64,000 nucleotides of DNA from Protoeuglena noctilucae (GCA_958009085.1 OY253688.1:186001-250000), one strand, 5' to 3'; counted from the first letter of the stretch, positions 2,361 through 64,000 are shown. The notes: generated by a model not told the origin, from the letters alone. Translations and numbers: made by a program.

Positions 2361-5281
2361 ATGAATGGGAAGGAGATGCGGCTGTCGGGGCTGGAGCTGG
2401 ACTCGGGGGCGCAGTACGACATGGGTTTGACAAGCCCTTCGCCGCGGCCCATGGGCGACCGCGACCGGATCCTCAGCGACCTGCGCGCCGTGTGCGCCGC
2501 GGATCCGCCTGCGCTGAGCGTCTCGCCTGTGGTCAAGCCGTACCTGATGCGGGCGCGGAGCATCCATGACAACGCGGAGGACTTCTGCGCCCCGGTTCCC
2601 AGCAACCTGGGGCCTGGGGCCAAGGCGAGGGGCGCGGGGGGCGGCATCGCGTTCGGGTCAGCGGAACGTGGGGACAGAAGCCTCACGATGGCGTCTGACT
2701 CGCCGCTTTGCTGCCCACTTGAGAAGGGCGTCACAGGCCGCTGTGGCCGCGCGAGCCCGAGACCCCGAGGTCGCGTTCCCCGTCGCTGCAGATGGCTGGT
2801 ATCGAGGCGCGACTTCAAGAAGAGCAGCAGATGCTGAGCAACACGTCTCTGCGGGGGTCCGCGCAGGAGATGCTCAAAGCCACCCCCAAGGGCACGCAGA
2901 CGCATTCGCGGCAGGGTGCGCGGCGCTCTGTGCGCTGCTGTTTCACATCAGGAATGTGTAGATGGATCGTTCGTGCGCTGTTGATCGCTGCACATTCTCC
3001 CCCCCGCCCCTCCACCGCTGTAGTGAACAAGAAGGCCTGCCAATTCCACGAGAACGACCTGGCGGAAGTCGTCATTGTGTGCGAGGTGACGCGAACGCCA
3101 CGGATGATTGAGACGTCGCGCGTGCCGGGCCTGCAGCAACCGCAATCCTCCCCTCCCACACCGCGTCTCTTCTGCGGCTCGCAGCCCGAGGGCGCGTCCG
3201 TCATGATGGGCGGCCTGCACCCGCGCTCGTCTCTCTTCGAGCGCCCCCTGAACCTCGCCCAGGCGCGCAAGCAACACGAGAACTTCCGTGAGGTCATGCG
3301 CACCATGGGCGTCAAGGTGCTCACCGTGCGTGACATCCTGAGGTGAGGAACCCGGCGCGGGTGTGCGGATATCGCACAGTGCGCGAGGGAGCTTATGGCC
3401 CTGACACATACCTCGTAGGTACGTGTCACCTGACTCGAGACGTGTGCCTGCAGGTATGCGGCGGAGCAGAATGTGCGGGCCAGGGTGGAGCTGGAGGAGT
3501 TTGCGCTGGGCGCGCTGCAGTACAAGCTCAAGGACGGCGTGGACGCCAGCGAGCTGGGGTCCGACCTGCAGTGGTACCTGTCGGACGACTACAAGCGCGA
3601 GGTGCTAGAGCAGATGTCCACCGACCAGCTGCTGGACGTCATCATGACGAACCCCACCGTGCACCTGCGGCCGAGCGGGAGGGACACAGGTGCCAGAAGA
3701 GAGGGCTGCGGGGCCGCGCGCTGTGCGTGTCGAGGAGGCGTGCAGACCCCAGTGTGCGTTCGGCCGTCCCTGCAGGTCTGAACCCCGAGTACACCTTCGC
3801 CCCGCTGGCCAACCTCATTTACAGCCGGGACCAGCAGATCACGACGGCCAAGGGCATCGTGATGGGCCGGCTGCGGTCGTCGCAGCGCCAGCGGGAGGTG
3901 GCCATCATGCGCCTGTGCTTCCTCAAGCTGGGGATGCCCGTGGTGGGCGAGATCGCTGCCCCGGGGTACCTCGAGGGCGGGGACTTCTTCCCGGCCGGCC
4001 CCGAGCTCTGCCTCATCGGCGTGGGCCTGCGGTCGAACATGGAGGCGTGCCAGCAGCTGATGGAGCGGGACCTGCTGGGCACGCGGTGCGTGGCGGTGGT
4101 GAGGGACGACTTTGAAAAGCACCAGGACCGCATGCACCTCGACTGCGTGTTCAGCATCCTGTCGGACGACTGCTGCATCATGCTGGAGGACATGATGGGG
4201 GAGACGTCGCCCACGCGGCGCCTGGTGGACGAGTACGTGCGCGACCCCATCTCCGGCAAGTACACGGTGAGTGGCGCAGAACGCATGGGGTGCCGCACAA
4301 CCTCTGGGTGGCGCCTGTGCCAGGGAGGTGCAGGGGCTATGGAGGTCATGCATGGCTTGATGACGCGGCAGTGGCGGAGAGGGGTGCCGGTGTCACGAGA
4401 AGACACCGCTGATGCCTTGATCGTGAGTCTGCTATCGTTCTTGCTTCGTCTCAGCTGGCCCGGTCGAACGTGGAGTTCAGCCGCTACATCCGCGCCAAAG
4501 GCTTTAACATCATCCCCGTCAGCGGCGCCGACCAGCTCAAGTACGGCTGCAACATCCTCAACCTCGGGCAGAGCACGATCCTGTCCGTGCACGAGAAGAC
4601 AGCGCGGCAGGTGAGGGGCGGTGTGGCACCTGGGTGGCAATCGCTGGAACATCCATCGACACGTCATGCGTGAGCCTGGCATTGGAATGCGTGCCTGAGT
4701 AGTAGTAGTGCCAACACGGTTGCGGTTGGCAGCCGCACATGAATGGCAGCACATGTCTCGCTGCCCCTGTGTGCAGATCACGCGGTCCCCTCACTTCAAG
4801 GGCGACGTCTTTTTCGTCGAATTCGACGCCATCACGAGCATGTACGGCGCGGCGCACTGCTCGAGCCAGATCGTCAAGCGATCAGGTGAGGGGCATGGCG
4901 ACCTGCATGGCTGTGCCACGAGGGGCTACCTGGGTCATTCGATGCAGCTGCCTGACACATTCGCAATGTCAAGCCATTTGCGCCCTCAGCAGAGGAGGCA
5001 GCGGCCTTGGAGATAAATGAACCAGTCTTCGTTCCCCATCGTTGCCTCACGATCACTGATCCTCTCTCGCCGCCCTCGCAGCGTCCCGGTGGGTGAACCG
5101 CGCCAAGCACTCCATGGCCTCCGGGATGTCGAGTGGGGGATCGGGGGCCAAGACGTCGGCCATGACGGTGCCCTTGGGGAACGGCAGGGCCACGCCCACG
5201 CGCGACGACGGCAACGTGTCCACGAGCGCGCCCTTAGACTTCAGCAGCCTGACGGAGGCCGCGGGGGAGCTGCAGCTGTGA
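2361..5281 (+). CDS. ADI1: Arginine deiminase (amidinotransferase superfamily), 9 exons
   Basis: Spliced product contains CQFHENDLAEVVIVCEPE, SLFERPLNLAQARKQHENF, NLIYSRDQQITT, LEGGDF, DRMHLDCVF and catalytic MYGAAHCSSQ. There are 8 introns; the first is GC-AG (2625). Confidence 0.9.
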
Positions 5282-5659
5282 CGACGATGACGATGACTGG
5301 GACCATACCACGACACCGCCCTGTGCTGGGCGTGGCGCCCTCAGGGCACCGTGACGAGAGATGAGGGCACCGCGATCGGTGCTTCCATACCCGGCCCTCC
5401 CCCAACGGCTGGGAATGCGCAGCGCCCCTCAATAGCAACAACGTAGCGCGCGCCGGCCGCTCGGGCCCTTTGTTTTGTGGGCGCCTGCCCTACTCCTGTG
5501 CCTGCGCCTGCCTTTTTTGACTCTTCCAGCCCATCTTGGCGGCCCCTTTGCGTGCACGCTCCGACGATGCTCGATGTCCACGCCCATAAGACCTTCCTGC
5601 CTTTTCAAAGAGGCATTCTCACACGCTGGCGTGCACGTAACGTCCGCACTCCATACACC

Positions 5660-7999: not shown

Positions 8000-10900
8000 A
8001 TGTCGGACTCGGATGAGTTCTCCGTGGACGATTATGGGTACTCGTCGGCGGAGGACGACTTGCTGAGCCCCGAGGCCCCAGCCCAGGCGAGTACGGGGGC
8101 CCGAGGGGATAGCGGCCGCCTCTGCGATGCGCCGTCGATCTCGATTGGGAGCATGGCTTCCGTGGCAAATGCACGGCGCGCCTCGCGGTCGGCGAAGCGC
8201 TCACGGAGCACGGGCGATGGTGCGTGCTTTGCAGCGGGCTAGGTACCATGTGCTGGACAAGGAGCGGATGCACGAGGTCAAGGAGGGCGCAGTCGAGAAA
8301 GTCCAGGGCGTCTTGTGCGTAAGCCGTGACCAGGCGGTGCGGGTTCTGCGGCATTTCGGGTGGAATGTGACCCGGGCGAACGAGTCGTGGTTCGTCGACC
8401 AGGTGACGCGCGGTTCCGGCGAGGGCCTCGGTCGCGGGGCCTTGGCTCGACGTACGACTTGTGCGCGTGCCCTGGAGCCCCACGCGACCTGCTTTTCCCG
8501 CGCATTTCCTTTGCAGGAGGAGCTCTCGCGCAAGCTGGGCATCGTGCACGGGGAGCAGCTGCGTCGGACTCAAGTTTCGGGAACGTGCAACATCTGCTTC
8601 GAGACCACGGAGGCGCACAGGCTCCGGGGAGCGGCGTGCGGTCACTTCTTCTGCACCGAGTGCTGGACAGGGTACGTGGAGGCCAAGTTCACGGAGGGGC
8701 GGGCCCAGGTCCTCGACATGCGCTGCCCTCAGCCCGACTGCGGCTGCCAGGTGCGCTTGGGGATTCGTGCAGCGCGCAGGGGCTCGGTGCGCTGCCCCCG
8801 GGCAGCGGAGCGACCAGCTGCGTTGCGCTGGGATTCCGACGGCCTCGGGACCTCATTCGGTCCTTGATGTGAACTATACAACCTCCCGCAGGTGCTCCCC
8901 GACCTCTACCGGGACCTGGTGGACGCGTCTCTGCTGGGCAAGTATGAACAGTTTGAGACGGTGGACTTCGTCGAAGCGAGCAAGGACATGCTGCACTGCC
9001 CGAGGGCCGGATGTGACAACGCGGTGAAGTGAGCCCGGGGGCGTCGGGCGGCCTCTGGCCTTCGCTGCCGCTGCGACGTGACGTGACGCATGTGCGCCTA
9101 CTGCAGATTGGTGGACTACCTGGGGAGCTCAGGCACCGAGGCGCTGCCCGTCGAATGCGCGTGCGGGTACATGTTCTGCAGCCGGTGCCTGTCCAAGTTC
9201 AACGCCGAGGTGGAGCCGCACGGGCCGGCCTTCTGTGAGGACGTGCAGGAGTGGGCGCGGAAGAGCAGCACCGAGGCCGCGAACATCCAGTGGATCCTCG
9301 TCAACACCAAGAACTGCCCGAAGGTGACGTGCATCGCGCCATCGCGCCAAGTGGAGACGTGCCGTCCGACAGTGCCCGCAGCCAGCGCACGACATGCCGG
9401 GGGAGGGATTGTCCTGTGATTGCTGGCGTCGCCTCCCGACCTCGTGTGCAGTGCCACAAGCCGATCGAGAAGAACAGCGGATGCATGCACATGACGTGCG
9501 CCCAGTGCCGCCACGAGTTCTGCTGGCTGTGCCTGGGGGACTGGTCGCGGCACGGGGAGGGGTCTGGGGGCTTCTACAACTGCAACCGGTGAGGCCAGAA
9601 GCTAGGCATACCACGATCGCTGTGTGGGCGGTGTCGCGGTCGCGGCCACCCTCTCCAGGTCACCCGTCCTGACCATGCGTGCCCTGGTCGCCCTCGCTGC
9701 CGTCGCATGCCTGGCCCACACTCCCCCTGCATTCCCGCCACACCCCGCAGCTACGAGAAGGCCAAGCTGCGCGGCCAGTACACGGACGAGCAGCGCAAGC
9801 GGGAGAACGCCAAGGCGGCCCTGGACCGGTACGTGCACTACTTCGAGCGCTTCACCTTCCACGACAAGGGCATCCGTAAGGCGCGGGCGGACAGCGCGGC
9901 GGTGGAGCAGGACAAGGAGAAGATCGCCAACGTGACGGGGACGCCCCCGGGGCAGCTGCGGTTCCTCACGGATGCATGGGAGACGGTGGCGCAGGTGAGG
10001 GGCAGAGGATGGATGCGTGGGTGCATGGGAGACGGTGGCGAAGGTGAGGGGCAGAGGATGGATGCGTGGGTGCATGGGAGACGGTGGCGAAGGTGAGGGG
10101 CAGAGAGGCAGCTGCGGTGACCAATTGACATGGTGGAGGCAGTGTGGAGGAGGCGCTTGCCTGCGTATGCGCCGAAGACGTGCTGCTGTGTTGGACTGGC
10201 GAGAGGGTTGAGAAGCGCATGTGACGCCTGCTGAGTTCCTCTTGCTTTCCGTGTTTGCCCAGGGCGCGCGCACGCTCAAGTGGTCATACTGCCTCGGTTT
10301 TTCCAAGTTCACGGACACGGAGGGGGACGACGCCCGCAAGAAGGAGCTGTTTGAGTTCAAGCAGGTGGGCGGCGTGGCAGGGTGGTCTGAATGGTATCAG
10401 CTCAGCTCAGCAGGGAGTGGGGATGACACAGGCGGCACTGGCGACCCTCACGGGCGACTTCGGGTAAAAGATACGACACTTTGCGTTGCGTCCCTCCACA
10501 GGGCGACGCGGAGCTGTCGCTGGACCGTTTGCGCAAGTGCCTGGAGGACGGGGTGCGGAAGACGCTGGCGCGCCTGGACCACGACTCCCTGGACAGGCTC
10601 GCCACCAAACACGACGAGATTGAGCGGGAGTTCCACGCCCTCAAGTGAGCGGGGTCCAGGGGTGTGTCAGTATCACACCGTGTTAGTTGCAGGACATTGC
10701 CGAGCCTTTGTGGTTGTGTGCACACCCCGCCATCCGTCGTGCTGTGACGCGTGCAGGGTGGAGCTGATGAACCTGGACCAGACGACGCGCAAGTACTTCA
10801 CGGAGATGATGCGGGAGCTGGAGGGCGGGGTGGGGCAGATTGGGGGGCCGGAGGACTCGGGGGCGGCAGCGGGGCCGTCGGGGATGGGGCACCGGGGTGA

Positions 10901-11379: not shown

Positions 11380-12881
11380 CTACTCCTGTGCTGCCTCAGC
11401 CGCCGCCCCTGTCTCCGTGTCAGCCTCTGGACCCTTGCTGCCCTTGTCCGCACTCCCCTGCCCCCCATCCCCACCGCCTCCCTTCTCTCCCGCGCCGTCC
11501 TTCCCGCTTGCCTCCCGGCCCTTCTCCTTCCCCGTGTTCCCCTCCTCGACCCCAGCCAGCCGCCTCCAGTTGAGTTTCTTCAGGTCGTAGTACCGGGGAA
11601 ACACCGCCAGCAGCGCCGAGTTGCGGATCAGCGTGACGAGGATCACCTTGCGCGCATCGCTGAGGCTCACGGAGTGCGGGGGCGTGGGGACGAGGCGCGC
11701 CAGGCCGTCGATGACCGGGCCACGCAACGCCTTGTCTGCCGCGCTCGAGTTGAGCTCCACCGCCATCGTGAAGCCCTGCGGTGGGAGCAGCGAGCGTGGC
11801 GCTCGCTCGAAGAATCGAAAGATCCCTGCCAGGTGGCGGGCCACGTGCATGGCTTATGCAAGCAGCCTGGGTCCTTGGGGCCCAAGTAACACCCCATGAA
11901 ATTCCAGGGTCGTGCAAGCATAGCCCTGCCCTTCCCTCTCCGCGGTACAGTCATGCCCCTCCTCACCTCTCCCGACGAGGGGAACTCGCGCTGCACCATT
12001 GGCGTGGCCGCCTCTAGTATCTGCTGCACCCCAGCATAGCACGTCGTCTCCACAGGCGTCACGCGCAGGGCGTAGCGCGTGCGGAGGACCTTCGTGCGAG
12101 CCAATTCCTGCGGCGAGACCGCACACGGCTCGTCGCACCGGAGCACAGAGCACTGCCGCCAGTGCTGCTCCACAAAACTCCCCCGCACCTCGGCAATGCT
12201 CAGCATGATCGCGGTGGGCGTGGCCGCCCCTGAAGCGGCTTCCTTGTTCATCTCCACGAACACCAAGCCCCGGAGACCCGTGAGAATGTACCAGAATAGC
12301 TTCTTCTGCCTGTCCTGCTAGGGCAAGACGAGGGGCGCGAGGTCCGCAGGCGTGCAGGGCGACAGCACACACTCCGCCGACTCCTCACCATCGCTCACCT
12401 GCATCCCATCGAACTCTGCCTTGATCTCCGCAGCGATGTCCAGCTTGCCAGCATCGGAAGCCCCCCCCTCGGCCGCCCCACTGCCCGCCTGCCGTGCAAG
12501 CGCAGCATGGTGCTCCGTCACCACGTTGATGACCTCCAGAGCAGCCCGTGTCTCTTTCCCCCCCTCGCAGCTGACTGCGAAAGCGAGGGAGAGCCTTGGA
12601 CCCTTCCCATCGCCACTACACAGCCCAGGCAGCGCCACCGGTGCAGCTCCGGCCCTCGCCTAGGAACCCGCAGGCCGCCTTTGGGATTTGCCCGGACGCC
12701 TGACCTCCTCCCCCTTTGGATCGGCCCTTTCCACGCCGCGCCCCCTCCGCGCCTGCGCGCACATGGTTAGCAGCCGGTTGCAGGCACGACGGCCCGCCAT
12801 TCCTGAGCCTGGACAGGTGCAGCAGCCGCGATGCGCACCGTCATCGGTCTCTCGCGGCCTTTTCTCGCGGGCACCGGACAT
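11380..12881 (-). CDS. THUMP domain-containing protein (THUMPD1/Tan1-like)
   Basis: Spliced product contains GFLVSCEGGKETRAALEVI, DIAAEIKAE, TGLRGLVFVEM, TRYALRVTPVETTCYA and HSVSLSDARKVILVTLIRNSALLAVFPRYYDLKKLNW. There are 4 introns, one GC-AG. Confidence 0.8.
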
Positions 12882-13731: not shown

Positions 13732-15766
13732 ATGGACTCCGGCGACTCGGAGAGCGGGCACTCTGGCCCGCCCCCGCCGTACGAGAGCATCGTCCTGAGC
13801 CGAGCGGCCGTACGGTGCGGAAGCCTCGCTCGCATCACCGCCGCCATCGCTATCAGAGAGCTCTCGCTCGAAAACCTCGGCTGCTTCCCTCACGCGTGCC
13901 GCGACCTGGCCCATTGCTCGCAGGCCCCCCAGGATCCCAGGCCCTTCCGAGAGCGTGGTGCTGGGTCGCCCCGACATCGAGATCGATGTGGTCGACCCGG
14001 TCAGGCAGGGCGAGGGCGTGACGGCCTTCTGGGTCTACCGCGTCGTCACCCGCACGTCCCTGCCCCAGTTCGGCCAGCCGGAGCTGGCCGTCTTCCGCCG
14101 CTTCCGGGACTTCAAGTGGCTCCACGACCGCCTGGCGCAGCGGTACCGCGGCGTGGTGCTCCCACCGCTGCCGGAGAAGAACGCCGTGCAGAGCAAATTC
14201 CAGAGTGACGACCGCTTCATCGAGGCCCGGCGCCGCGCCCTGATGGTCTTCCTCAACCGGGTGGCGGCCCACCCGCTGCTGCTGCAGTCGGACGAGCTCA
14301 AGGCCTTCCTCTGTCAGCAGGAGGTGCGTCGGAGGCTGGGCCGGGTCTGACAGAGCCAGAGATGGGACGGGGCGTTGTGCATATACCGCAGCAACGCGAC
14401 GGGATGCTCGTGCCAGAAGGCATGCGCTGGGTCACGAGTCCGCTGTTGAGCTCTGCAACCGAAAAACAGTGCTTTGGTTTGCAGGACGCGTGGGCCTTCA
14501 CGGTGGCGCGGACGGCGGGCGAGACCTCGACAACCTCCACCGTCGTCAACAACGCCATGCAGTTTCTGCGGGGCTGGACGCACTCGGCCGTCAACCTGGT
14601 CCACGGCAGGCGAGAGTGCGGCTGCGTCACCGTTCCCTTCACTTTGCAGCAGGACCGTTTCGCCAGCGCTCGCGTCGCCCCTCACTCCCGCGCCGTCCGT
14701 GCCCGTGCCTCCTCAGGAGCGACGACGAGCAGGAGGACATCGAGTACCTCCGTTTCCGCGACTTCGTCAACATCCTCGAGGGCCACACTGCGGAGGTGCA
14801 CAAGCAGGCGGGGCGGCTGATCCGCAAGGAGGCCAAGGTCCTGTCGGTCATGAAGGACCTGAGCGACGCGGCCATGGGCCTGGCGCAGTTCGAGAAGGAG
14901 CCGCTGAAGCAGTGCCTGGGCATCGCGGCGGCGCGGTGCACGCAGCTGTCGTCGTCGCTCGACAGCTGCGTGCAGGAGATGGACGCGTCGCTCGAGGCGC
15001 CGCTCAAGGAGTCGGTGCGCGCGCTGCGCGAGGTCCGCAGCACGATGGAAGACAGGGCCCGGGCGCTGTCCAACCTCAGCCAGGCGCAGGGGGAGGTGGA
15101 GGTGCGGCGGTCGCGCCTGACCAAGCTGCGCAGCACCCCGGGCGTCAAGCAGGACCGCCTCATCATGGCGGAGCGCGAGCTGTCCGTGGCGCAGCAGACG
15201 GTCGAGGTGCAGCGGGGCGAGTACACGGCCATCGTCAACAAGATGGGCGGCGAGCTCGCACGGTGCGGGGCCGGCGCAGCCTGGCAGATGCAACGAAGAC
15301 GTGCGCGCCTGTCCTGGGGTATCAGCCTCTCCCAACTCGCGTGCCCGCAGCTTCCAGCGCGAGCGGTCGGCGGAGCTCGCGCAGGTCATGCGCAACTTTG
15401 CGCACATGCAGCTGGACATGGCGCGCGAGCAGGTCAAGGCATGGGAGACGGCGGTGGCAGAGCTGGATCCCGTAGTGGACCACTACCACGCGGAGCTCAA
15501 GGCCGAGGGTGGCGGTGAGGAGCGGTGGCAGGGAGGGCGCGTGTTGCGGGGTTGTCGTTGAGGGGTGCGACCGTGGAGGTGTGGAGGGTGCGGAGGGAGT
15601 GGCTAGCAGCTTGCTCCTCGCCGCGCCTGCAGACGTGCCCGGCCTTGCCGCGTTCCCCACGCCGACCCACACGGAAGCCAACGGCCACGCGTCCTTGCAC
15701 GGTGAGGAAGGCCATGCCAATGGGTTCCACGCCAACGGGGCCCACGCCAACGGAGTCCACGCTTGA
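13732..15766 (+). CDS. Sorting nexin, PX-BAR (SNX1/SNX2/Vps5-like)
   Basis: Contains PPPPYES, the PX domain (VFRRFRDFKWLHDRL...VLPPLPEK...FIEARRRALMVFLNRVAAHPLL) and a C-terminal helical BAR region ending ELARFQRERSAEL. There are 5 introns. Confidence 0.92.
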
Positions 15767-15906: not shown

Positions 15907-16857
15907 TTAGAACGCCGGGCTGGCGTTCATCTTGCACGACTGCATGGCATCGAAGTATGGCTGGCAGATGCCCAGGTCCCCGTTGTTCTTGGACATGCAC
16001 TCGGCGAAGTACTTGCCCATCTCCGCGCAAGGATCCGACATCTGGCTCGTCACGGGCGCCTGCGAGCCCACGCGAAGAGGGTGACGTCGGCGTCGGGTCG
16101 CTGCACGGCACACCCCCGCCAGTCATACCCCTGCCAGCAGCAGCACTCGCCTGCTGCTGCTGCTGGGGCGCGGGGGCCGACTCGTGCTTGTTACCCGAAG
16201 AGAACAGCGACCCAACCGCCTCCCTGGCAATCGCCGTCCCCGTCCCCCACGCCGCGCCCTCGGCCATGGTGCGGCCCAGGCCCGCTAACAGGCCCCCGCC
16301 CTGCTGAGGGACCGCCGGCGGCGGTGCCGTCGAGTACGTCGCCGGAGGAGGCGGGGCCTGCGATTAGAGAGCGGAACGCTTTCGAGGCACGTGGCTGGGA
16401 ACGGACCTTCGGCCAGCCAGTTCCAGAAGCCGGCCCGCCGCAGCCGCGCCGCATCCGTCGCCCCTCCGAGCGCGTTCCGCAGCTCGCACCTGGTGACTAG
16501 AGCGCGTGGACGTCGACGAGCCGAACCCCGACGACCTCCCCGAGCTGCTCTTCGCGCTCGCTGCGAACAGTGGCAGGGCGCAGGGCGTGGGCGCCCCGGG
16601 CATGCGAAGACCCTGGCCCGGGCAGATCACATGCGCAACATGCGCCACGAGGCCCCCACAAACGAGACCGCACGCGCGCCGAGACGCCGGGGCAAGGTGC
16701 GCCACGGAGCCACGCGAGCCCCGCGCGCTCCGGCTCCCGACCTCGACAAGGAGCGAGCCTCGCGTGGAGACTAACAATTTGTGCACGGAGGACGCAACGG
16801 AGCAACAGATTCCCGCTTTCCTCCGCCGAACTCACCCCGCGACGAAGACCGCGGCAT
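15907..16857 (-). CDS. CHCH-domain mitochondrial protein (CHCHD2/CHCHD10/Mix17-like)
   Basis: Begins MPRSSSR, contains GLGRTMAEGAAWGTGTAIAREAVGSLF and a twin CX9C motif (DPCAEMGKYFAECMSKNNGDLGICQPYFDAMQSC). There are 3 introns. Confidence 0.9.
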
Positions 16858-19533: not shown

Positions 19534-20833
19534 TTACTTCCGGCTCTTGGACTTCTCGCGCATCGCGTCGAGCTGGTTCAGGCCCGGGCCCAGCGCGTTG
19601 AAGGCCACCCAGCCGAGGACCGGCACGAAGAGCGACACGATGATCCCGAACCGGTTGTCCCCCTCCGCAATCTGCGGCGGGCCGAGAGGGTGACTCGTCG
19701 GCGGGGGCAGCTGCGACGCGCGGCAGGCAACCAGGGTGGCAAGCACCTCGGCCATCACCATCAGGGTTGTACGCACCTGGGCGATCTCGGCCGCATTCAC
19801 ACCCTGGGCGTGCAGCAGGCCAGCAAGGCCCGCGGCGCCGGCCACGATGGCGGCGCGGTTCTTCGACTTCTCGCGCATCGCGTCGAGCTGGTTCAGGCCC
19901 GGGCCCAGCGCGTTGAAGGCCACCCAGCCGAGGACCGGCACGAAGAGCGACACGATGATCCCGAACCGGTTGTCCCCCTCCGCAATCTGCAGGCATGGGA
20001 GGAGCGGAAGGTGGGTCCCGAGCCTGGGCGGAAGGGCAAAGGCTGAACAGCTCCCGGGCATTTGCTGACCTGGGCAATCTCGGCGGCGTTGACACCCTGG
20101 GCGTGCAGCAGGCCAGCAAGGCCCGCGGCGCCGGCCACGATGGCGGCGCGGTTCTTCGACTTCTCGCGCATCGCGTCGAGCTGGTTCAGGCCCGGGCCCA
20201 GCGCGTTGAAGGCCACCCAGCCGAGGACCGGCACGAAGAGCGACACAATGATCCCGAACCGGTTGTCCCCCGCCGCGAGCTGCGCAATCTCAGTGGCAGC
20301 GTTGGCGTTGCCCGCGGCGAACAGCGTCGCGGCCGCAACCAGGCCGTTGAGCGACCCCTGCGGGAAGGGAGAGATGGAAGACACTGGAGAAACCCCCGAG
20401 CAGCGCGCACGCGAGGCGCGCGAAGGCGAGGGCGGTCGCGATGGTCGAAATAGTACTAACGAAGGCCCAGGCGAAGCCCGGGGTGGGCAGAGCGCCGCGG
20501 AAAGTCAGCCAAAAGCCGTTCGGATCTCCGCGGGCCCAAGCGAGGTCGGGTGTGACAGGGAGCAAGAGCGGCGATGACTACGTCCATGGACGTCGCAGAG
20601 ACTGCTCCATCGCAGCTGCAGAGCCGCCCCCGGGCATCGATCGTATCCCGACACTCGCTATCCCCGCCCCTGCGCCGATGCGGGACGCCAGGCACCGCAC
20701 GCACCCGAACAACATCATCGGCCTTCTGCGCCTTGCAGACCACCGCGCGAGCGGGGAGGGCCGGCTTCCCCGCGCGAGCGCCCGCGCCGGGTGAGGCCAC
20801 GACGGGCCGGAGCGCCACGCGTGCCGCCAGCAT
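19534..20833 (-). CDS. PSBY: Photosystem II PsbY polyprotein with three PsbY units
   Basis: Transit peptide MLAARVALRPVV...AVVCKAQK, then three copies of GDNRFGIIVSLFVPVLGWVAFNALGPGLNQLDAM, each preceded by a hydrophobic signal-like linker ending A/V-N-A|A. Introns at about 20359-20703, 19987-20069 and 19672-19776. Confidence 0.92.
19545..20272 (-). repeat. Three near-identical direct repeats corresponding to the PsbY coding units
   Basis: 20070-20270 is nearly identical to 19777-19980, and both are nearly identical to 19550-19671 over the shared part. Confidence 0.95.
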
Positions 20834-48280: not shown

Positions 48281-50002
48281 CTAAAGCTCTATATGGTCCA
48301 CACCGCGCTCCGACAGCCCGTCGAAGATCAGCCTCTCGTAGTCGGCCTTCTCGTAGCACGCAACACACGTCTGTGGAGGAAAAGAGGTGCCGAGCCACAC
48401 GTTGGGCCGCAGAGGCAGGACAGTGCCGGAGACCAGCCCCAGTTGCATCGTACGTCACCTTGCCCAGGACGGTGAGCACCGCCTCCAGTTCCCCCCTGCG
48501 CAGGTGGCTCAGGTCGCCCCCCTTCTCGATGCGCAGCCCCCGAACGCACTCCTGCCCGCTGGCGAACCCCACGAGCCACTGCTGGATGCGGCCGGCGGTG
48601 AACTTGGACCCCTCGTAAGGGACGATGCGGTCGCCTTTGCCACAAATCGCCGCCACGCCAGCCCCCGTCAGCCCTGCCGCTGCGAGCACATCCCTCTGCG
48701 AACCAGGGCACGGGACGCGGTCAGAACCCCTCCCCCCCGCCGTCTCTCAGCGTAACCAGACTTCCGCGTCCCCGCATACGTGCCTGGCTTGTCTTGGCCT
48801 CCATGACGAAGATCTGGGACCCGAACCTGTAGGCCAGCGTCCGGGCCTGGGCGCTCGGGTCGCTCTTGGACGACATGAACAGCACGCAGATGTGCCAGTC
48901 CGCCTTGAGGCACTCGGCGTACAGCTGCTGGAGCTCGCTCGCCGTGCGCACGGCACGGACGTGGTCGGGGATGGCCGATATGCCCCACTTGGACAGCGCG
49001 GTGGCGGTGCGCGCCCCCCGGTAGTCGGCGGGCGTCCCGCCCACGACGGCCTTGATGGTCGGGTAGGACTCGACCCGCGCCGCCTGGCAGAGGGCCTTCT
49101 CCTTCTCGCAGTTGACCGCCGCCACCCGGACGATCCCGTCCAGGTTCTTTGCCACCTTCTCGAACTCGTCCTTGAAGGCCTTGCAGTGGGGGCACCACGG
49201 CGCGTAGAACTCGACCACCCACACCCACCGCGTGTCCTTGCTAACCTCCTCGTCCCACGTGTTCTTGTCCACATTCTTCACTGCGGCCGCCGATCAGAGG
49301 CAGCATGTAGTACACAACGACCACGCGCCCCCCTTGCCGCGCCCGCCCTCAGCCCCCGCCCTCACCTCGGCTCCCATCCTTGTACAGGTTGGCCGTCTCC
49401 CTTTGCGGCTGCTGCTGCTGCTGCTGCTGCTGGAACCCGAAGCCGCCCCCCGGGAAGCCGCCGCCTTGGAACTCGAAGCGGATGCCCCCAAAGTCGAAGC
49501 CCCCAGCCTGGAAGCCCCCAGCTCCGCCTTGGGGCCCCTGCTCCCCGTACGCGTCGTAGGCCTGCCGCTTCTCCGCGTCTGCAGCAAGGTGCGGGTGTGG
49601 GCGCCTTTGCGGCTCCGGCGACGCCATAGTGCGGGCCGCCAACGGCCAGGAAGCTGCACCGCGCCCCACCGCTCAGGACGTCGTACGCGTTGGAGATCTC
49701 GGCGAACCTCTTGGCCGCCGCGTCGCGCTCCTCCTCGCCCACGCGATCGGGATGGAACTGAACGGCGAGCTTCTTGAAGGCCTTCTTGATTTCGTCCTCC
49801 GACGCCGACGGGGCCACGCCGAGCAGGTCGTAGTACTTGGTGCTCCGGACCGCCCAAGACCCTGACGCCCAGCGACGCGGCGAATCGGTCACAAGCGCGG
49901 GCGTCGAGCGGCGAGTGCGTAGCACGACTCCACAGGGGAAAAGCTCACACCTTGGACCAGCAAGACCCACACTACCAGGAAGAGGACCAGGCCCACCCTC
50001 AT
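48281..50002 (-). CDS. ER-luminal DnaJ plus thioredoxin-domain protein (ERdj3A/TMS1-like) with C-terminal ARMET/MANF-like CxxC module
   Basis: Signal peptide [19 protein letters not shown] domain YYDLLGV...QFHPD; G/F-rich linker with polyQ; Trx motif [12 protein letters not shown]-terminal [10 protein letters not shown]...HIEL*. There are 5 introns. Confidence 0.88.
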
Positions 50003-52997: not shown

Positions 52998-55900
52998 ATG
53001 GCCGGTCACCTCGCCGCAGTGCACTCTGCCGCGGCTTCCCTGTGTGCGGGGGCTTCCACCGTGTCCCTGGGTCCGACGCGGGCGCACCTGCCCCTGTGCC
53101 CGAAGCGGTCAGGACTCGATCGACCACGGCTCCGAGCGCTCGCGTCCGGCGTGGACCAGCGCGGCCTCGCCGTCCCCAAATATGACGACCACCGGTTTTG
53201 CGGGGGTGACCTCCGCGGCGGGGAGATCATAGCCGTGGACTCCGCGACCGGGGAGTGGCAATTCAACTTCCCCGTCGAGCCCGCCGCGTTGGCAAGTCGC
53301 CGGGCCCCCGCTCAGCCGCGCGCCGGCGTCGCGACCGTCTCATCTGTGTACGCTGAACAGCGTCCCCTGGTCGTCTCCGCAGCTGGGGCTCCGGGGGCGC
53401 CGTGGTTACCTGGACCCCGAAATCGTCAAGGCGTACGAGGACATGGTGGCGTACCGGCCGCGGGAGGGGTACTCCGAAGAGGCGATGAAAAGCAGAGAGC
53501 ATCTGCTGGCGCAGGCGCGGGACGCGCTGGTGAGCGACGCTGCGCCGGCCGTCTGCTGCGTGGCATATGCCGGGGTGTGGGGTCGCTAGTCACTCACTCA
53601 CCGCACACGAGGCCGCGTGCTTCCGCAGCGACGGCCGGGCTCGCTGGGAAGGAGTGCTGCGTCGACGACTGTCTCCTGGGCCCATTTGCCGGGGGGCCTC
53701 GCGCTCCTGGTGGATGCGAGGGAGTACGACCTGGTGATTGAGATTGGCAACCGCGTCCTGCGCACGGGCCGCGCGGGGTCGGCCGAGCCCGATGTCGTCC
53801 TGGCCATCGCCCTCGCGCACTGCGCCCTCGCCCGCGACGCCCTCGACCAGGGCGGTAGGGTGGGCTTGGGCGTCGCCCGCCTCGAGGAGGCCCTCAGCGT
53901 CCTTCGTGCCGCGCGGCCTCCCCTGGCGCCGGGGCTGCAGCGAGAGGTGGGGTACTTTGCGACCGCCCGGTCTCGGCGCGTGGCTACTGGTTTTTGGAAT
54001 GCGCGGGTCCCACAGCGCGCCCCCTCGTCGCAGGTGGAGGCGGCTCTGGAGCGCCTGCTGCCCCACAGCCATGTGGAACAGTTGGGAGCGCCGATCAATG
54101 CCGAGACTCTGGCGGCGCGGAAGCAGGCCCTCATGTTCATCGCGGGGGCGCTGTCCCGGGGCAAGGCTGCAGAGGAGGGCGTGACGGACCGCGCCTTGCG
54201 CATAGCGATGGTGAGCTCGCTGATTCTCCTGGGGAAGTGCACTGCGTCGCCTGCCGGGCTGCTTCGCGCATGCCAGACAGCGCCATCACCCGCAGTCCAA
54301 GATGACGGCGGAAGAGGTCGTGAGCCTCGTGGACTGGGCCGAGGTCGCCGCCTCCCCTAGCAGCGTGCCGTGGATCTACCACGGCATCTTCGCGCGCGTG
54401 GTCCAGGCGCTGATCGTGACCGGGTTCAGCCGGCGCAGCCCGGAACACATCAACCAGGTGGGGTGTCCGCACCTTGCCAGGTCCATGCATGCCTTGCGGC
54501 TGTCCGAGCCCCCGTGTGGGTTGACCCGCGCGTGGCACCCTCGCCTCGCAGGCCAAGGAACTGGCGCGGTCCCCGCCTGATGGATCGACGCTGGAACTCG
54601 AGCGCTGCGTGTGCTACATCCTCCTGGGCGACGTGGACCGCGCCTTTGCCATCCTCACGACGGAGGAGCGCCGTCGCTCACAGCGGTCGGCCCAGTCCCT
54701 TGGTTCGGCGTCCCGGCCGGGCCTGGTCGCGCCCACGTCCGTGATGCGCTACATCCGGAGCGTGTCGAGTCCTGACGACCTGCTGCCGGGCTTGTGCATG
54801 TGGTGGTGAGACGCAGAGAGTCTCGAAAGTCACCTCGCTTGCTGCGATTGCACGATGCTTTGACCACTGCCATAGGCATGGGGCCCAGCCAAGTGTCCGC
54901 GTGGGCGTGCATGTCTCGCATGAGGCATGCAATCATCCCCGCCCCCTGCAGCGAGGACTGGCTGGTCGTGACGGGAGAGCGCTTTCGTGGGAGTGAGGGC
55001 CTCGACCCGTCCCTCACTGCGTACTTTGAGGACCCCCAGATGGCGCGCGTGCTCGCCGAGCTCTCCCACTCAAAGCCCCTCCGCACTCTGTGGGACTCCC
55101 TCTCCGACGCACAGGCAGCCCTGCGCAGAGTCATGGACAAGGTCTCGGGGCAGAGGGGCGGCAGGGCCTCGGGCGCAGGGCAGCCCAGGGACGTGGAGCT
55201 CGCAAGGAGGGCCGCGATCGCTGCGAGGGACAACGGGGGGGACGCCCGGAACCCCGACTCGCTGCTATCGCACGCCATGGGGAGCTTACAGAGGGAGGCC
55301 GAGGGTGGGGGCGGTCCAGATGCGGCGGATGCCGGACCCGCGACTGCGTCGGCTCACGCGTCTCCCGGCGGCAGCACAGGCTCTGCTGCCAAAGACCGAC
55401 TCGAGGGACTCCTGACGCGTTCGCGGAGTGTGGCCGAAGGGGCCTCCCCACGCGTCCCAAGGTTGCGCCTCCGGCCTGTCCACTTCCTCCTGCCTGCGGC
55501 GGCACTCGTGACCCTGACCGTCCCACTACTAGGCAGGCGCCCGTGGAGCCTGGGCCCGCTGCGCAGCGTGTCCTTTACCCTTCCCGCCGCATGGCGTTCC
55601 TCGGACACGCAGCGTGCCCAAGTGCGATCGGACATCGAGGCCGCCATCAGGTGCGCAGCCGGGCCCGGGTGCAGGCGCGTCACCATGCCTCCTGCGGGGA
55701 CCTGTTAGACGGCGCGCGATCACTGTGCCGCGCAGGTCCTGGCAGCGGATCAAGCACGGCATCATGGAGGGCAGCCTGTCGGCGAAGGAGCTGCCCACGG
55801 TCCTGGGCGGAGACTACCTCTCGTCGTGGAGGCTCAAGCACGCGCAGGCGGGGCACGATGCGTCCTGCACGTGGCGATACGAACTGCGGAGGCTCGACGT

Positions 55901-56253: not shown

Positions 56254-58428
56254 CTACTGGCTGAACCTCGAGTTGATCAGCTTGTCCTGCCCCTTGGTGA
56301 CCTTCACGTACTCGATCGTATCCCCGACACGCATGTCCGACTGGGATGGCAGAAGCGTGGGGGTCGGGTGAAGGTGCTGGGCGCAGCTGTCGTATGGGCG
56401 TTCGCCCCTGTCAGGCACGCCGCGCACTCTCACCAGCAGCTCCTGGCCCTGCGTGATGTACCCGAACACGGCATACCTCCCGTCGAGGAGGTTGGAGCCC
56501 GTGGGCGTGAGCTCCGACTCCTTCAACAGGAAGAACATCTGCGACGACCCCGAGTTGGGCTCGAACTCGGCCCGCGCCACGGCCAGGGTGCCGAAGGCGT
56601 TGAAGGGCAGGGCGGGCAGGTCGTTCGCGCGTCCCAGCTCCTCGAGCGTGATGCCATAGACAGGCTCCTGCGGTCGCGAGCCCACGGGTCGCCTCGGGCC
56701 GCCACCAGGTTCGGGCCAGTTCGTTGGGGCATGCAAGGACTTCCATGGGTATGTAAGAGAGCTGCGTAGCCCTGCGTGCAACCGCACCTTGTCCATGGCC
56801 GGGCGGACCTCGAATGGGATGCGACGCACTTCCTTGGTGTCCGGGTCCACGAAGCCCTCTGCGGGCCCATCGGGGTCGCCAAACTGCACCACGAAGCCGT
56901 CCGCCCGCTGGATCGTCATGCCGTCGTAGAACTTGCGCAGCACCAGGTCCATGAAGTTGCCGGCCGAGACGGGGGCGTTGTAGCCGTCCAGCACAATCTG
57001 AGGGCATCCGACCCGGGCGCGGTCGCTGGCGCCCCGTCCCACGTTGTCATCGCGCTCTTGCCGCCACCCCTGCCACGCTCGCCTTGAAGACCCCTCCCGT
57101 GATGCCGTCCGACGCCACGTCCTTGAGACGGATCTTCATCTCCAGCTCCGCGCGGCCCCGGAGCTGAGGGAGGTTGCCGTACTCGGCCGGCACCTCGAAG
57201 GGGAAGCCCTTTACCATGGCCTCCTCGATCGCCGTAACTGCAGCGACCACAGAGGACGCCATGGCAGGTGCAGACCCCGCAAGTCAGCGTTGCATCCCAG
57301 GAGCTTGCACGTGTGACACGCACCTGCGCTCAGGCACTTGGCCTGCTCCAGCGGGATCTCCTGCTTCCTCTCCTCCTTGAGCACCACCTGCAAGCGGCCG
57401 GGCGGGGCAGGGGCCATGACGTCGACCCAAGCTCGCGGCCATGCCCGCCCCCACAGGCGACTCTCACGTCAAAGTCCTGCAGCGCTGCTTTGAGGTCCGC
57501 CAGGGCACGCTGCCCGTCCGCCTTCTTGTCATCGGCAAAGTCCCTGACGATCTGGGCCTCGCTCTTCTCCAGCGTCCGCTCCGCGTTGCTCACTGCCCGC
57601 CGGATGGGGCCGAGGGACTTGCTGCCTGCGGGGGGAGCCAGGGAGGGTCTTCTTGCTGTGAAGCTCCCGAGCAATGCTCCCCTCGCACCTGCCCTCGGCA
57701 GCATGACCTACCGGGGATGCGCAGCGCCTCGGAGATGGACTCCAGCTCCTTCTGGATCACGCGGATGGGCTTGTCGTCGATCTGGAGGGCGTACCGCAGG
57801 ATGGCCTGAGGGTTCTTCACCCCGCTGTTGACGGGGAGGGACGCCTCGGCGCTGAGACCCCCCACCACCGGCAGCGTCATCAGCCCCGCCAGGGCAGTCG
57901 ACAGCACTGCATTGCGCCAGGAAGGCGCACCCCCCTGCGGGCATCATCAGGAAGCTGGATGACGAGGATCCTCCCTCACGGCATTAGAACTCCAGCACCT
58001 GGGGCAGGGTCGGTGACATGCATCCCAAGCGCAGTATGTGACGCGCGGGAGTGCCCAAGCCACGCATCCAATGACGACGTCGCAAACGCGCTCAGGGCGG
58101 GCGTGCAGGGCCGCTGGCAAGTCACAGGAGACCGGGAAAAACGCGTTGGTCTTCCAGCGCCCGACCTGGGTGGGTCGCAGACAGCCGCGCTGGGCGTCTT
58201 CTCTTCTCCAATACCAAACAAGTCATCGCTTTAGCACGCACAGGGCCGCCATCGGCGCGGGGGACGCTGCCATCGGCGTCAAGCGCGCTGGCACGGAATC
58301 ATCGGGCCGTTGAGGCCCGCTCAGCGCCTCCTCGCCTGGTCTGCACGACCCGATGCGGCGCAAACGACACGTCGAGTGCGCTGGTGTAGATGGGACGCGG
58401 GGGGAGCGGGCGCAAGCGACATCGCCAT
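56254..58428 (-). CDS. CYP38: Thylakoid lumen cyclophilin CYP38/TLP40
   Basis: Contains [67 protein letters not shown] and [29 protein letters not shown]. The first exon MAMSLAP...RRVVCAASG joins in frame via a GC-AG intron of about 400 nt. Confidence 0.95.
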
Positions 58429-59224: not shown

Positions 59225-61111
59225 ATGGCGGACCCGAGCTCCCTGCTTGGGAGCACCATCAGCCTCATTTCCCAGAGCGACATTAGGTGCGCCGAAAGCC
59301 GCGAGCCCTGCGAGCCCCGCCCGGGGCGTTTGCCGGTGGTGAGCACGTGGCGGGCACCTGCGCAGGTACGAGGGCGTCCTATGCAACATCGACACGGCGG
59401 AAGCGACCATCTCTCTCAGAGACGTCCGCACGTATGGAACGGAGGGGCGGAGGAACGGGCGGGAGGAAGTCCCCGGGAGCCATGGTGCGCGTGCTCGACA
59501 GCGCTGCCCTGCGTGCACGAGGGAACCCGGGTCGACGCAACGGCTGCTGTTTTCTGGCCGGTGCAGAGGTGTACCAGTTTATCGTGTTCCGGGGCCCGGA
59601 CATCAAGGAGCTGCAGGTGGTGCAGCGGGCCCCTGAGCCCGCCCCGGCACCCAAGTTTGAGGACCCTGCCATCGTGTCCGCCGTTTCACAGGGGCACCGG
59701 GGGTACCCAGGGCAGCCGTTTGGCATGCCCCCCATGGGACCGGGGGGATACGGGTTCGGCTACGGTGAGGGCGGACGGCGTGGCAGGCCAGGCCAGGGGA
59801 TCTTCGTGGGCGGTGAGTGAGCTCTGACTTCTGCGCTTCTCTGCGCAGGTCCGGGGGGACCGAACCCGATGATGTACAACCCCATGGGCCACCCTGGCCC
59901 CATGCCGGGGGGGCCCATGCCCGGGGTGCCCATGCCCCCGTACGGGCCCGGCCCGGGCCCTCACATGGCGGGCCCCCCGCCCCATCACGCGGGCCCCGCG
60001 GCTAACGGGAGGTTATCGGGTCCCAACGCACCCCCAGCGCCAGCTGTGCCCGGCGCTGGGCACGCGCAGGCCCCGCCGGAGCACCCGAGGAAGCCTACGG
60101 CCCAGAAGGGGGAGCAGGCGCCCGCTGTTGCGAGCAAGGGCCCCATGGAGCCGAGGGGGGAAGCGGGCGGCCACAGCGCTGCCGATGGACGCACTCGGCA
60201 GCCGGCGAATGGCGCGGAGGGCGGACTGCGCGTGCCGCCCCCCCAGACCCCGCCTCGGCAGCCCCGCAACAGCCAGCCCAGGCCTCCCCAGGGGCCGCCC
60301 CCGGGCAACTCGGAGGGATCTTGGCGAGGACAGGTGGGCGGGGTCCTTTGAGATGTTGAGACGAGCGGCAGTGACGGCGTGGTGACGCAACCGCGTGCCC
60401 CGCCTGGCCCCGCAGGTCGACCCGAGGCCGGCGCCGACGGTGCAGGTGGTGAGCGCGCACGGCGGCAGGGGGGGGGCGGGCGAGGAGGGCGCGGGGCGAG
60501 GCCGGGGTCGGGGCCCGCGGCCCGGGCGCGGGCACGAAGGCGGGAACCCGGCAGCGTATGCCACCGTGTCGGTGGCCGGTCCCGCCCCGGGCCGCGGGGC
60601 CCAGGGCGGGGCCCGTGGCCGCGGCCGTCGCGGCTGGACCCCGAACGGCAACGTCATCGAGGCGCCCAAGGAGGACTTCGACGTCGAGGCAGCGAACGAA
60701 CGGTTCCAGCGTGAGGACGGCGGTCCGAACGGCGCGGGCGACACGCAGTCCGTGTACAAGAAGGCGAGGCGCACCCCGGGTGGCTTTGATGCGAGGGCGG
60801 ATGGCACTGGAGGGCGTCGTCCCTGCTCCTGGCCCCCGGTGAAGTCCGCTTGACTTTCCCCCTCACGGTCCGCCTCGCAGGACGAGTTCTTCGACACGCT
60901 GTCGTCGGAGCCGGCTCAGCCCATGCAGAGCCTGGACGTCCACCGCAAGGAGATGGCCGAGCGGCGTCGCGTGGACGTCGAAACTTTCGGAGACATCGCG
61001 GCATCCTACCGGTCCGCACACCTCAGGGGGCGGGGGAGGGGCCGGGGCCGGGGCCGGGGCCGGGGTGGTTGGGGTCGTGGCAACAACGGGCAGGGCGGAG
61101 AGCGCTTTTAA
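59225..61111 (+). CDS. DCP5: Decapping 5 / LSM14 (Scd6/RAP55) P-body protein
   Basis: LSm14 domain LLGSTISLISQSDIRYEGVL...YGTEGRR...YQFIVFRGPDIKELQV; FDF-like EDFDVEAANERF; FFD box YKKDEFFDTLS; TFG box VDVETFG; RGG tail. Confidence 0.93.
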
Positions 61112-61986: not shown

Positions 61987-62364
61987 CGCCGTCCCGCACC
62001 GCCAGGAACGCGCCACGACACCCACAGTTGGTGGAACGCAATGCGTGGTTGTCTTTTTACCTTCAACTTCAGGAATAGGACAAGGTACGGTCTGAGAGTA
62101 CCCTTTTGCTTCCATCTCAGAGAAGATGATCTCCAAATCCTCGCCGGTTCAGCGAGGAATGGCCGGCTAGCGGCTACTACCCGGGCTAGGGTTCTTGAGG
62201 GTAGCGTACCCACTTAGCCTGCTAGCCTGAGCTGCCTCTTGAAGCTCTCCCCGGCGGAAGATAAAGAAAGTCGCAGATTGCAGATTGCGTAGAGCTGACT
62301 GCGCACGACGTGGCCTCTACAGCGCGGAAAAGGCATGTCTTGAACACGCGCGACGCGGGGCGTC

Positions 62365-64000
62365 ATGACGGCCTCCCCTCCCTCGGCACTGCCCGGAGTC
62401 GCAGACTTGTTGCCGAAGAGCGCCACGTCGCTCAGATGGTGAGGCCATTTCAGCAACGCGGTGGCCACCGCTCGGCTTGGGCTTTTCACTGCGTCTCGTC
62501 GCGCTCTTTTCGCAGGCACCTCATCGCTGCCCTCGTCGCCGGCTTTGCGGTGTCGTGGACGGTCTCGAGGGTCTGGGACACGGCCTGCGCGGGGGCGAAT
62601 AGCCGAGGTGCTCTCCCTGAGCGGTGCCTGTGCGGCAGCGTGACCGAGGCGGACAGCGCGGGACGTCCGCGTGACGATGTAACAGTCAATAATCGCTTGT
62701 CCTTCCCCGCAGGCTGCGCGATCGTGTTGTGGGCGGCGTACCCGCTATGGCTCGTCTGGAGGGCCGCCAAATGGCTGGTGGTCGACCCGCTGACAGCGCC
62801 GATCGCGTCCCTATGGCGTCTGGTGTGTGTGAGTCTGGTGGAATACTTCGCAGCCCTGGACCCCGCGACGCAGCTGGTGGTGGCCTTTGTGGGCGGCGCG
62901 GCGGCGATGGTGGTGCTTTCGGCTGTCGTCATCGTCCGCTTCGTGCGAAGCATATTCCGGCCGGACCCGAACTCGGCACCGCTTGTGCCACGTCGATGGC
63001 TCAGGCATCGCCAGGAGGCGTTGCGGCAGGTCCTGGTGAGTCCACCACGGGACTGCACTGCGCTGTTCGGACCTGCTGTTCCGTCGTGGCGCGACTCGAA
63101 AGCAGCGGAGGAAAACGCGTGCGGGGAGCTCTATATGAGGGGAGCTTGACCCACCCCCACGTCTTGCATGCACTTCAGGAGACCAAGGGGGAGCACGCGT
63201 TCCCTCCACTGCCCTCCGTCCCTGGAGTCAAGCAGCCCTTCCTCATCGAGTACGAGGCGCACAGCCGCGCGGGTGAAATGCGCGGGTGGCTCTGGGTCAT
63301 GCTGGGCTCCGACTACGACGGCACCTTCAGCAAGACATGGCCGCCCCTTGCTGAGGCAAGTTAACTCTGCCGCCCAAATGTTGCCCAATGCTGCTGGCAG
63401 TGTAGTGCATCACATGCGTACCTTTCATCGCACTACGACCGGATATAAAGAGGGTCGCTTGCGGGAGATTTGCGTCGGCATGCTCCATGACTGCACGCAG
63501 ACACCCGATGCCCCTGCGCGGCGGTGGTATTGCACACTTCGACTGGCTGAAGGTCCCCCTATGGCGACCTCCGCGTCGGAGGAGGCTCCTGGCGTGGCCG
63601 TCCCAGGCCGCAGCCCGGGACCTGGGAAGAGGGAGCCGGCGGAGCGTCGCGGCCCTGTGCTCGTCCTTTCTGAGGTGTGAGGACCTGAGGAGGGAGCCCA
63701 TTCGACGGCTGGAATGCTTCAGACAGCGCGCGCTCGGACAATGTCGAGCGTGGACGCTTTCGTGACTGCCCTCTCACGGCCTGTTTGCATGCAGGTGCAC
63801 CCTGATGCGCCTGTCGCACCTGGCAAGCGCCCCTTGGAGATTTTCGTCGACTTGACAGAGTGCGAGGCGAGCATCTACCGGGAAGGCCAGATGGCGGACG
63901 CTTATGTCTTTCAGAAGCGCGGCCCAGTCCTGCTCTCCCATCCCCGACGCACGCTCCTCGGCTCCGATCGCGCGCTGTGTCTCTTCGCATACAATGCTGC
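62365..64000 (+). CDS. Membrane-anchored PH-like domain protein, probably TEX2-like (SMP lipid-transfer family); 3' end outside the window
   Basis: N-terminal hydrophobic helices, then MRGWLWVM, RRWYCTL...VLVLSE and VDLTECEA...QKRGPVLLSHPRRTLLG...LCLFAY, resembling the PH region of plant TEX2. Five introns splice in frame. Confidence 0.6.

Follow-up and report, generated by a model that had tools for sequence, protein, structure and literature searches.

GC-AG introns are abundant in a GC-rich, intron-dense 64-kb stretch of green algal nuclear DNA

How freely can C replace T at the second position of a splice donor? The question is raised by a 64,000-nucleotide stretch of Protoeuglena noctilucae DNA (GCA_958009085.1, OY253688.1:186001-250000; the whole stretch is called the window below), in which a first-pass annotation made from the sequence placed GC donors at 26 positions and put the share of GC-AG introns at about 18%. 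The observation that GC-AG introns are abundant is confirmed, and GC-AG junctions are used in mature RNA: spliced RNA fixes eight of the 26 claimed introns as GC-AG, with no equivalent GT-AG reading. These are probably ordinary U2-type introns of a GC-rich (~67%), intron-dense green alga, in which about one-fifth of donors carry C at +2 through GC pressure.

Spliced RNA at the claimed donors

The dinucleotide GC is present on the assigned strand at all 26 positions. Exonic AG precedes 24 of these donors, as the annotation had reported, the exceptions being 24537 (CG) and 53292 (TG). The description of the donor words holds as well: 18 sites read GCGAG and four read GCAAG, and the remaining four are weak (GCATGG, GCACGG, GCGCGT, and GCACGT). 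RNA evidence contradicts none of the 26 claims.

The RNA comes from environmental marine metatranscriptomes (runs X1, X2, and X4) and is other than that of the sequenced strain; X5 is a DNA-like run. Contigs of all four runs were aligned to positions 24500-44499, a 20-kb segment chosen for holding 14 of the 26 claims. Within this segment, 36506-37839 has no RNA cover and was kept out of the evidence. The splice joints examined are the 15 listed of 41 in the segment, and every sequence-equivalent placement of a joint was enumerated before its intron type was called. Two of the listed joints are long skips with sides of 20-21 letters, which are present in the DNA-like run too and represent repeats. 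The other 13 skip 76-297 nt, occur in all three RNA runs, and are absent from X5. Ten of these short joints are GT-AG, and three can be read solely as GC-AG.

The first of the three is the intron at 32341-32433 (minus strand) in a methyltransferase gene, with the donor GCAAGG. Its joint, 32339/32433, is found in X1, X2, and X4 but not in X5, and the sole canonical-type reading is CT..GC on the plus strand. The intron at 34774-34849 (plus strand) belongs to a signal peptide peptidase gene and has the weak donor GCGCGT; for its joint (34771/34848, three RNA runs), GC..AG is the only placement that fits. In the Mpv17/PMP22 gene, none of the eight equivalent placements of joint 35612/35698, again present in the three RNA runs, is GT-AG, which fixes the intron at 35614-35698 (minus strand, GCGAGA). 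A fourth GC-AG intron, 31850-31968 (minus strand, GCGAGG), lies in the arginine methyltransferase gene. Here a piece of an X4 contig ends at 31849, and an X2 contig carries 13 loose letters past 31851 that equal the window from 31971, that is, the exon upstream of the donor at 31968 on the minus strand.

Four more introns are fixed by proteins. P0001, P0126, and P0138 are database proteins that are 100% identical to window sequence. The first two can only derive from spliced RNA and match the window after intron removal alone. P0001 (576 aa) comes from a 3309-nt RNA contig, and an RNA contig of equal size aligns to the window. Its exact spliced alignment to the gene of an EHD-type GTPase contains eight introns, five GT-AG and three GC-AG. 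The latter are 29459-29555 (GCGAGT), for which there is no GT-AG equivalent, 30380-30522 (GCGAGT), and 30638-30729 (weak donor GCACGG), all on the plus strand. P0126 (419 aa) aligns exactly with three GT-AG introns and one GC-AG intron, the latter at 48696-48783 (minus strand) in a DnaJ-thioredoxin gene that lies outside 24500-44499; its donor is the weak GCACGT.

Alternative GT donors at 29437, 30398, 30651, 35680, and 48779 are unused in the RNA, and several of the RNA-fixed GC donors have such unused, frame-keeping GT donors at a distance of 4-22 nt. In run X4, one contig follows the window to the exon end near 29780 and continues from 29783 with letters that resemble the next exon and clearly differ from it. 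We rejected this loose end as a conflicting junction, as it represents the next exon of a diverged relative or paralogue in which splicing takes place at that same position. Another X4 loose end is located at 30309.

Three further claims agree with the ends and lengths of RNA contigs. For the candidate intron 25730-25822 (plus strand, GCATGG) in a VWA-domain gene, the seventh X2 record holds 173 letters between a piece ending at 25468 and one starting at 25821, which corresponds exactly to exon 25556-25729; this arithmetic excludes the GT alternative 25767-25841. The candidate 40769-40864 (plus strand, GCGAGG) lies in a TamB/TIC236-like gene. An RNA piece ends at 40766, which is equivalent to an exon end at 40768 (AG ambiguity verified), the contig continues for 243 letters, and a GT donor at 40790 is excluded. 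In the same TamB-like gene, two RNA pieces end at 43588, equivalent to an exon end at 43593 (CGCAG ambiguity verified), which agrees with the candidate 43594-43705 (plus strand, GCGAGG) and excludes the GT alternative at 43603. This intron is stop-free, and P0138 (247 aa, 100% identical; 43153-43893, plus strand) is an open reading frame (ORF) running through it. Retrieved in a search with exon 43042-43593, P0138 was rejected as evidence on the splicing of 43594-43705, being an ORF translated from unspliced DNA.

Share of GC donors among the introns

The transcript-fixed set comprises 26 introns, 18 GT-AG and eight GC-AG, a sample that is biased upward. Figures for the window come from a gene finder, a two-strand generalized hidden Markov model with a 3-periodic coding model, whose splice matrices took the RNA-fixed introns as seed and were kept neutral at +2. 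The version adopted absorbs opposite-strand coding; earlier versions were discarded, having either recovered 2 of 14 RNA introns or run away in self-training to 233-300 introns. It predicts 22-23 genes; of their introns, 25 of 120 have GC donors when these are penalized by 2 nats and 22 of 117 when the penalty is 4 nats. After one retraining it predicts 26 genes, with GC donors in 24/128 or 22/126 introns, and the share over all runs is 17-21%. The retrained gene finder recovers 21 or 20 of the 26 claims, along with 24 of the 26 fixed introns.

In a decoy control at penalty 4, admitting GC yields 22 donors and a gain of 97.8 in score over the GT-only model, compared with 0-7 donors and gains of 0 to 9.6 for GG, CG, GA, CC, AC, and TC. 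At penalty 0, decoy dinucleotides attract 15-29 donors, and this setting is uninformative. Motif counts, which are annotation-free, point the same way. AGGCGAG occurs 32 times against 17.3 ± 4.2 expected, a number reached by 0 of 100 dinucleotide shuffles, and AGGTGAG occurs 23 times against 9.1 ± 3.1, which no shuffle reaches either; 18/32 and 17/23 of these occurrences, respectively, are donors in some set. Three GC-AG introns among the 13 listed short joints would have a probability of P = 0.0003 if the rate were 1% and of P = 0.006 if it were 3%.

Our best estimate of the GC-AG share in the window is 15-25%, and the ~18% of the first-pass annotation is about right. Its total of ~145 introns is plausible as well, because the gene finder (117-128 introns) undercounts: it reads through the in-frame, stop-free GT-AG intron 24276-24356, and so misses some introns.

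Donor anatomy and the origin of C at +2

Apart from the +2 letter, the GC donors and their acceptors follow the window's own U2-type consensus. GT donors read AG,GTGAG or GTGCG, and GC donors read AG,GCGAG, GCAAG, or GCGCG, which are T-to-C images at +2. G occupies +3 in 96% of modelled GT donors, the local donor word being GTGAG/GTGCG and not GTAAG. CAG closes every one of the 26 fixed introns, and in 23 of them the ending is GCAG (e.g., 28156-28407, 31037-31155, and 48371-48458). Fixed GC introns are 76-143 nt long and fixed GT introns 78-297 nt, with similar G+C in their interiors. Exonic AG precedes 8/8 fixed GC donors versus 12/18 fixed GT donors, which is a trend only (Fisher P = 0.08); the modelled sets, which are shaped by the scoring matrix, give 21/25 versus 57/95. 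Within intron interiors C/(C+T) is 0.63, and at +2 the share of C is ~0.2-0.3. Since the latter value is well under the former, C at +2 is tolerated rather than neutral, and GT is still favored.

In being U2-type with a 3' AG, these introns resemble the GC-AG introns of plants and animals, whose GC donors tend to follow the rest of the consensus more strongly. They differ in frequency, which is ~15-20 times higher than the ~1% of plants and animals, and in that the weak donors GCACGG, GCGCGT, and GCACGT are spliced too.

The first-pass annotation had offered two causes, extreme GC pressure tolerated through exon-side pairing and a spliceosome with relaxed recognition of +2. The former fits the composition of the window (65-74% G+C) and the T-to-C donor images; the latter is less likely. 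Measured in 4-kb steps over the 64 kb, G+C ranges from 0.647 to 0.742 (overall ~67%), and positions 37840-41841, in the TamB-like gene, fall within the most GC-rich part (74%). A GC-biased substitution regime would keep turning T at +2 into C, and this T-to-C change may be the single alteration of GT that a standard spliceosome still accepts. In the textbook register of pairing between a donor and the 5' end of U1 small nuclear RNA (snRNA), the C opposite U1 could be tolerated since -2A, -1G, +1G, +3G/A, +4A, and +5G would still pair. Short introns and the regular GCAG acceptor may add redundancy. Across the window, the CG dinucleotide has a frequency of 0.110 and GC of 0.124, and CpG is not depleted. 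One might speculate that a GTG donor turned into GCG by T-to-C at +2 faces no obvious methylation-driven decay.

The first-pass annotation was correct that GC-AG introns usually account for ~1% (1.3% over 61 species; PMC3033335), but it omitted a published exception among GC-rich algae. Iwata and Gotoh (2011; PMC3033335) report shares of 39.6% in Aureococcus anophagefferens (69.5% G+C), 22.2% in Micromonas pusilla (65.9% G+C), and 7.7% in Chlorella sp., describing GC-AG introns as "extraordinarily abundant" in GC-rich species and their origin as an enigma. The same study finds a canonical (putative) U1 5' 11-mer in Aureococcus and M. pusilla, and a tenfold difference in GC-AG share between two Micromonas species with identical 11-mers. 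For GC-rich pelagophytes, a 2024 preprint (bioRxiv 10.1101/2024.10.30.620910) gives ~14-17% in Aureococcus strains and ~14% in Pelagomonas calceolata, against 0.32% in the low-GC Aureoumbra lagunensis, a difference attributed to G+C. Literature searches on GC-AG introns in green algae, pedinophytes, and Chlamydomonas, including passages of PMC6310983, found nothing beyond these two sources and no report on the present lineage.

The window resembles the algae of the 2011 study in its high G+C (65.9-69.5% there, 67% here), in introns that are otherwise standard, and in a GC-AG share an order of magnitude above the usual 1% (PMC3033335). Unlike the figures in that study, which rest on early automatic annotation of genomes that are mostly poor in introns (PMC3033335), those reported here concern an intron-dense region with eight RNA-fixed junctions. 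The pelagophytes show a similar share with the same attribution to genome G+C, but they are stramenopiles with 0.1-0.9 introns per gene and their values are predicted (bioRxiv 10.1101/2024.10.30.620910); the window belongs to a green alga with many introns per gene. It is also set apart from both Mamiellales and pelagophytes by its nearest named proteins, which belong to core chlorophytes or to a pedinophyte and reach no more than 67% identity. As such, the window is a further, RNA-verified, and unusually intron-dense instance of a published phenomenon, and by itself adds no new mechanism.

An altered spliceosome, co-evolved with the GC-rich genome, could read C at +2 nearly like T, in which case GC donors would need no compensation. 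The alteration could lie in U1 snRNA (a variant 5' end or a second U1 species), in base modification opposite +2, or in changed U1C, PRP8, or U6 contacts. If true, this would account for the splicing of GCACGG, GCGCGT, and GCACGT and for C equaling T in the best donor context, yet we regard it as unlikely. Donors with a second mismatch are indeed spliced at 30638 (GCACGG), 34774 (GCGCGT), and 48783 (GCACGT), a fourth weak donor at 25730 (GCATGG) agrees with the contig arithmetic, and the motif excess in AG,GYGAG is as big for C (~15) as for T (~14). RNA modification and proteins of the U1 small nuclear ribonucleoprotein were left open by the 2011 authors (PMC3033335). However, the U1 5' 11-mer is canonical in both published high-GC-AG algae (PMC3033335), and C is still the poorer letter by two measures: its frequency at +2 (~0.2-0.3) falls short of the neutral expectation of 0.63, and the exon side of GC donors tends to be the better one (AG in 8/8 versus 12/18). 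An Rfam scan of the window returned no matches and no snRNA gene, and nothing in the window bears on this explanation. A special intron class, either U12-type or mobile introner copies that carry a GC donor, is extremely improbable. Among the species with a published high GC-AG share, Micromonas pusilla is noted for its introner elements, but an all-against-all blastn of 130 introns in the window reveals no shared family, the sole matches being a pair of overlapping alternative models for a single intron and a chance match of 17 nt. The consensus of the U12 donor box is RTATCCTT, and it occurs in none of the 26 claimed donors, which read GCGAG, GCAAG, and similar words instead.

Annotation error would imply that GC was picked where the true donor is a nearby GT or where the stretch is retained, with a real share of 1-3%. 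Such errors are easily made here, as GC is the commonest dinucleotide (0.124 versus ~0.05 for GT-like ones), the unpenalized gene finder picks 15-29 decoy donors, a frame-keeping GT alternative lies within 50 nt of many claims, introns are often stop-free (P0138 reads through 43594-43705), and five of the 26 claims are without support. Spliced RNA nevertheless excludes all GT placements at eight claims, including cases with a GT alternative; three GC-AG introns among 13 listed joints are unexpected even at a 3% rate (P = 0.006); and the AGGCGAG excess owes nothing to annotation. We therefore consider artefact refuted as a general explanation and highly improbable as the source of the observed share, though it may apply at individual unconfirmed sites. 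It is quite improbable that population polymorphism is responsible, such that the expressing cells have GT and the GC alleles of the strain are recent and mildly deleterious. The RNA stems from marine metatranscriptomes rather than from the strain, and spliced contigs cannot show intron letters. Polymorphism would, however, need at least eight variants, all T-to-C at +2, within 25 kb, in the conserved EHD, PRMT, SPP, Mpv17, and DnaJ-Trx genes, and most aligned contigs share 99% identity or more with the window, with no letter differences listed. Metagenome scans for genomic loci of relatives corresponding to P0001 found none.

Several points weigh against the preferred explanation, that of ordinary U2-type introns under GC pressure. 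RNA fixes just eight of the 26 claims directly and bears on three indirectly; the other 15 are outside the RNA evidence, and at 36959, 53292, 63356, 12659, and 58335 no gene is called and there is no Pfam match. The 8/26 share among fixed introns is inflated, as the claim-richest 20 kb was chosen and both protein searches were aimed at genes with claims. Environmental RNA shows the use of a junction and not the +2 letter in the expressing cells, and run X4 also contains the transcript of a diverged relative. The gene finder is unspecific at penalty 0, and its splice matrices were trained on RNA-fixed introns. Within the fixed set, the enrichment of AG before GC donors falls short of significance (P = 0.08), compensation by U1 pairing explains the splicing of GCACGG, GCGCGT, and GCACGT poorly, and we infer both the direction of the substitution bias and its cause.

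Gene finders and aligners that penalize or forbid GC donors would mis-model about one-fifth of the introns of this organism, and the genes fixed here each have at least one GC-AG intron. Where an intron is stop-free, the resulting errors are silent, as the P0138 ORF illustrates. Stop-free introns are common in the window (e.g., 43594-43705 and 24276-24356), and protein catalogues built from the ORFs of this organism therefore include translated introns. The first reports of the phenomenon came mainly from intron-poor algae and from automatic annotation. An intron-dense, RNA-verified case is a better system for asking how far donor recognition rests on +2, and it suits the question of whether GC-biased substitution alone sets the GC-AG share.

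Remaining candidate sites and genomic setting

Three additional claims are supported by other means. The candidate 24537-24635 (plus strand, CG,GCGAGG) in the VWA-domain gene has no GT alternative according to the gene finder, and three homologues show a 33-residue gap that corresponds to a 99-nt, stop-containing stretch beginning at the donor. A protein search with this gene yielded no identical transcript protein among proteins of at least 309 aa. In the signal peptide peptidase gene, the exon upstream of the candidate donor at 33855 (plus strand) matches Peptidase_A22B positions 12-60 through its final residue. The acceptor of the presumed intron 33855-33958 is inferred, and RNA contigs that start at 33957 are consistent with its TGTAG. 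The candidate 56998-57082 (minus strand, GCGAGC) in a CYP38-like gene is used by the gene finder, and its flanking exons align to adjacent parts of the CYP38 structure in PDB entry 3rfy (residues 144-182 and 192-256), which is compatible with the claim; a metagenome scan with a 30-nt exon pattern found no CYP38 transcript.

Six candidates are suggested by the gene finder, with supports that differ in the score drop seen when GC donors are forbidden. The largest drop (9.3) belongs to 43880-44007 (plus strand, GCGAGC) in the TamB-like gene. It is followed by 16060-16150 (minus strand, drop 6.8) in a CHCH-domain gene, which has no GT alternative, by 14610-14716 (plus strand, drop 6.2) in a sorting nexin gene, which has one 6 nt downstream, and by 60764-60880 (plus strand, drop 5.3) in an LSM14/DCP5-like gene, again with no GT alternative. 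The drop is 3.2 for 8087-8234 (plus strand) in an Ariadne-type RBR ligase gene and a weak 2.2 for 2625-2791 (plus strand) in a gene of the amidinotransferase/ADI family, where the GT alternative 2668-2822 exists. The candidate donor at 17976-17977 (plus strand, GCAAGC) is used by the retrained gene finder alone and has no Pfam match. Both gene-finder runs leave unused the candidate donors at 36959-36960, 53292-53293 (TG,GCAAGT), and 63356-63357 on the plus strand and at 12658-12659 and 58334-58335 on the minus strand. An extra candidate, absent from the first-pass annotation, is the donor AG,GCGAG at 37609-37610 (plus strand), which the gene finder keeps at GC penalties up to 10 and after retraining.

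Its Pfam gene content, its nearest proteins, and an RNA word coverage close to the exon share identify the window as nuclear DNA from a green alga that is marine, GC-rich, and dense in introns. Four marine metatranscriptome runs contain 40-50% of the words sampled from a 10-kb stretch, approximately its exon share, and four runs of one labelled organism contain 100% of the words sampled from the same stretch. The gene set has ~2 introns per kb. Per-exon Pfam scans of the gene models identify typical green-plant nuclear genes: a PsbY polyprotein, an ARC6/plastid-division regulator, the giant TamB/TIC236-like protein, CYP38, PDX1 (SOR_SNZ), the EHD-type dynamin-like GTPase, signal peptide peptidase, Mpv17/PMP22, the arginine methyltransferase, LSM14/DCP5, the Ariadne RBR ligase, a PX-BAR sorting nexin, TMEM18, the DnaJ-thioredoxin protein, and a UbiA prenyltransferase. 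The closest named proteins reach 67% identity for an EHD exon and 51% for a VWA exon. For both genes Pedinophyceae sp. YPF-701 heads the named matches, with chlorophyceans and trebouxiophytes coming next. The YPF-701 homologues of the EHD (28041-30747) and VWA (23953-26877) genes, P0004 and P0121, are each located on a contig of 759,931 nt; the equal contig size hints at conserved EHD-VWA linkage and at a pedinophyte relationship.

The PsbY polyprotein gene (19534-20718, minus strand) encodes three PsbY repeats, one per exon, and in its 5' part the gene finder places a GC donor outside the first-pass list, near 20658 or 20731. At 26318-27394, each of three runs has a single RNA contig that spans two GT-AG introns on opposite strands, 26721-26814 (plus) and 27021-27289 (minus); the transcripts of these convergent neighbors therefore overlap or abut at their 3' ends. 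Across 37840-41841, in the TamB-like gene, the word depth of X5 climbs from ~255 to 330-590, and X5 contigs break at 38023, 38267, 39223, 41716, and 41777, which suggests repeated or duplicated sequence. Loose contig ends at 42217 and 42695 are found in RNA and DNA runs alike.

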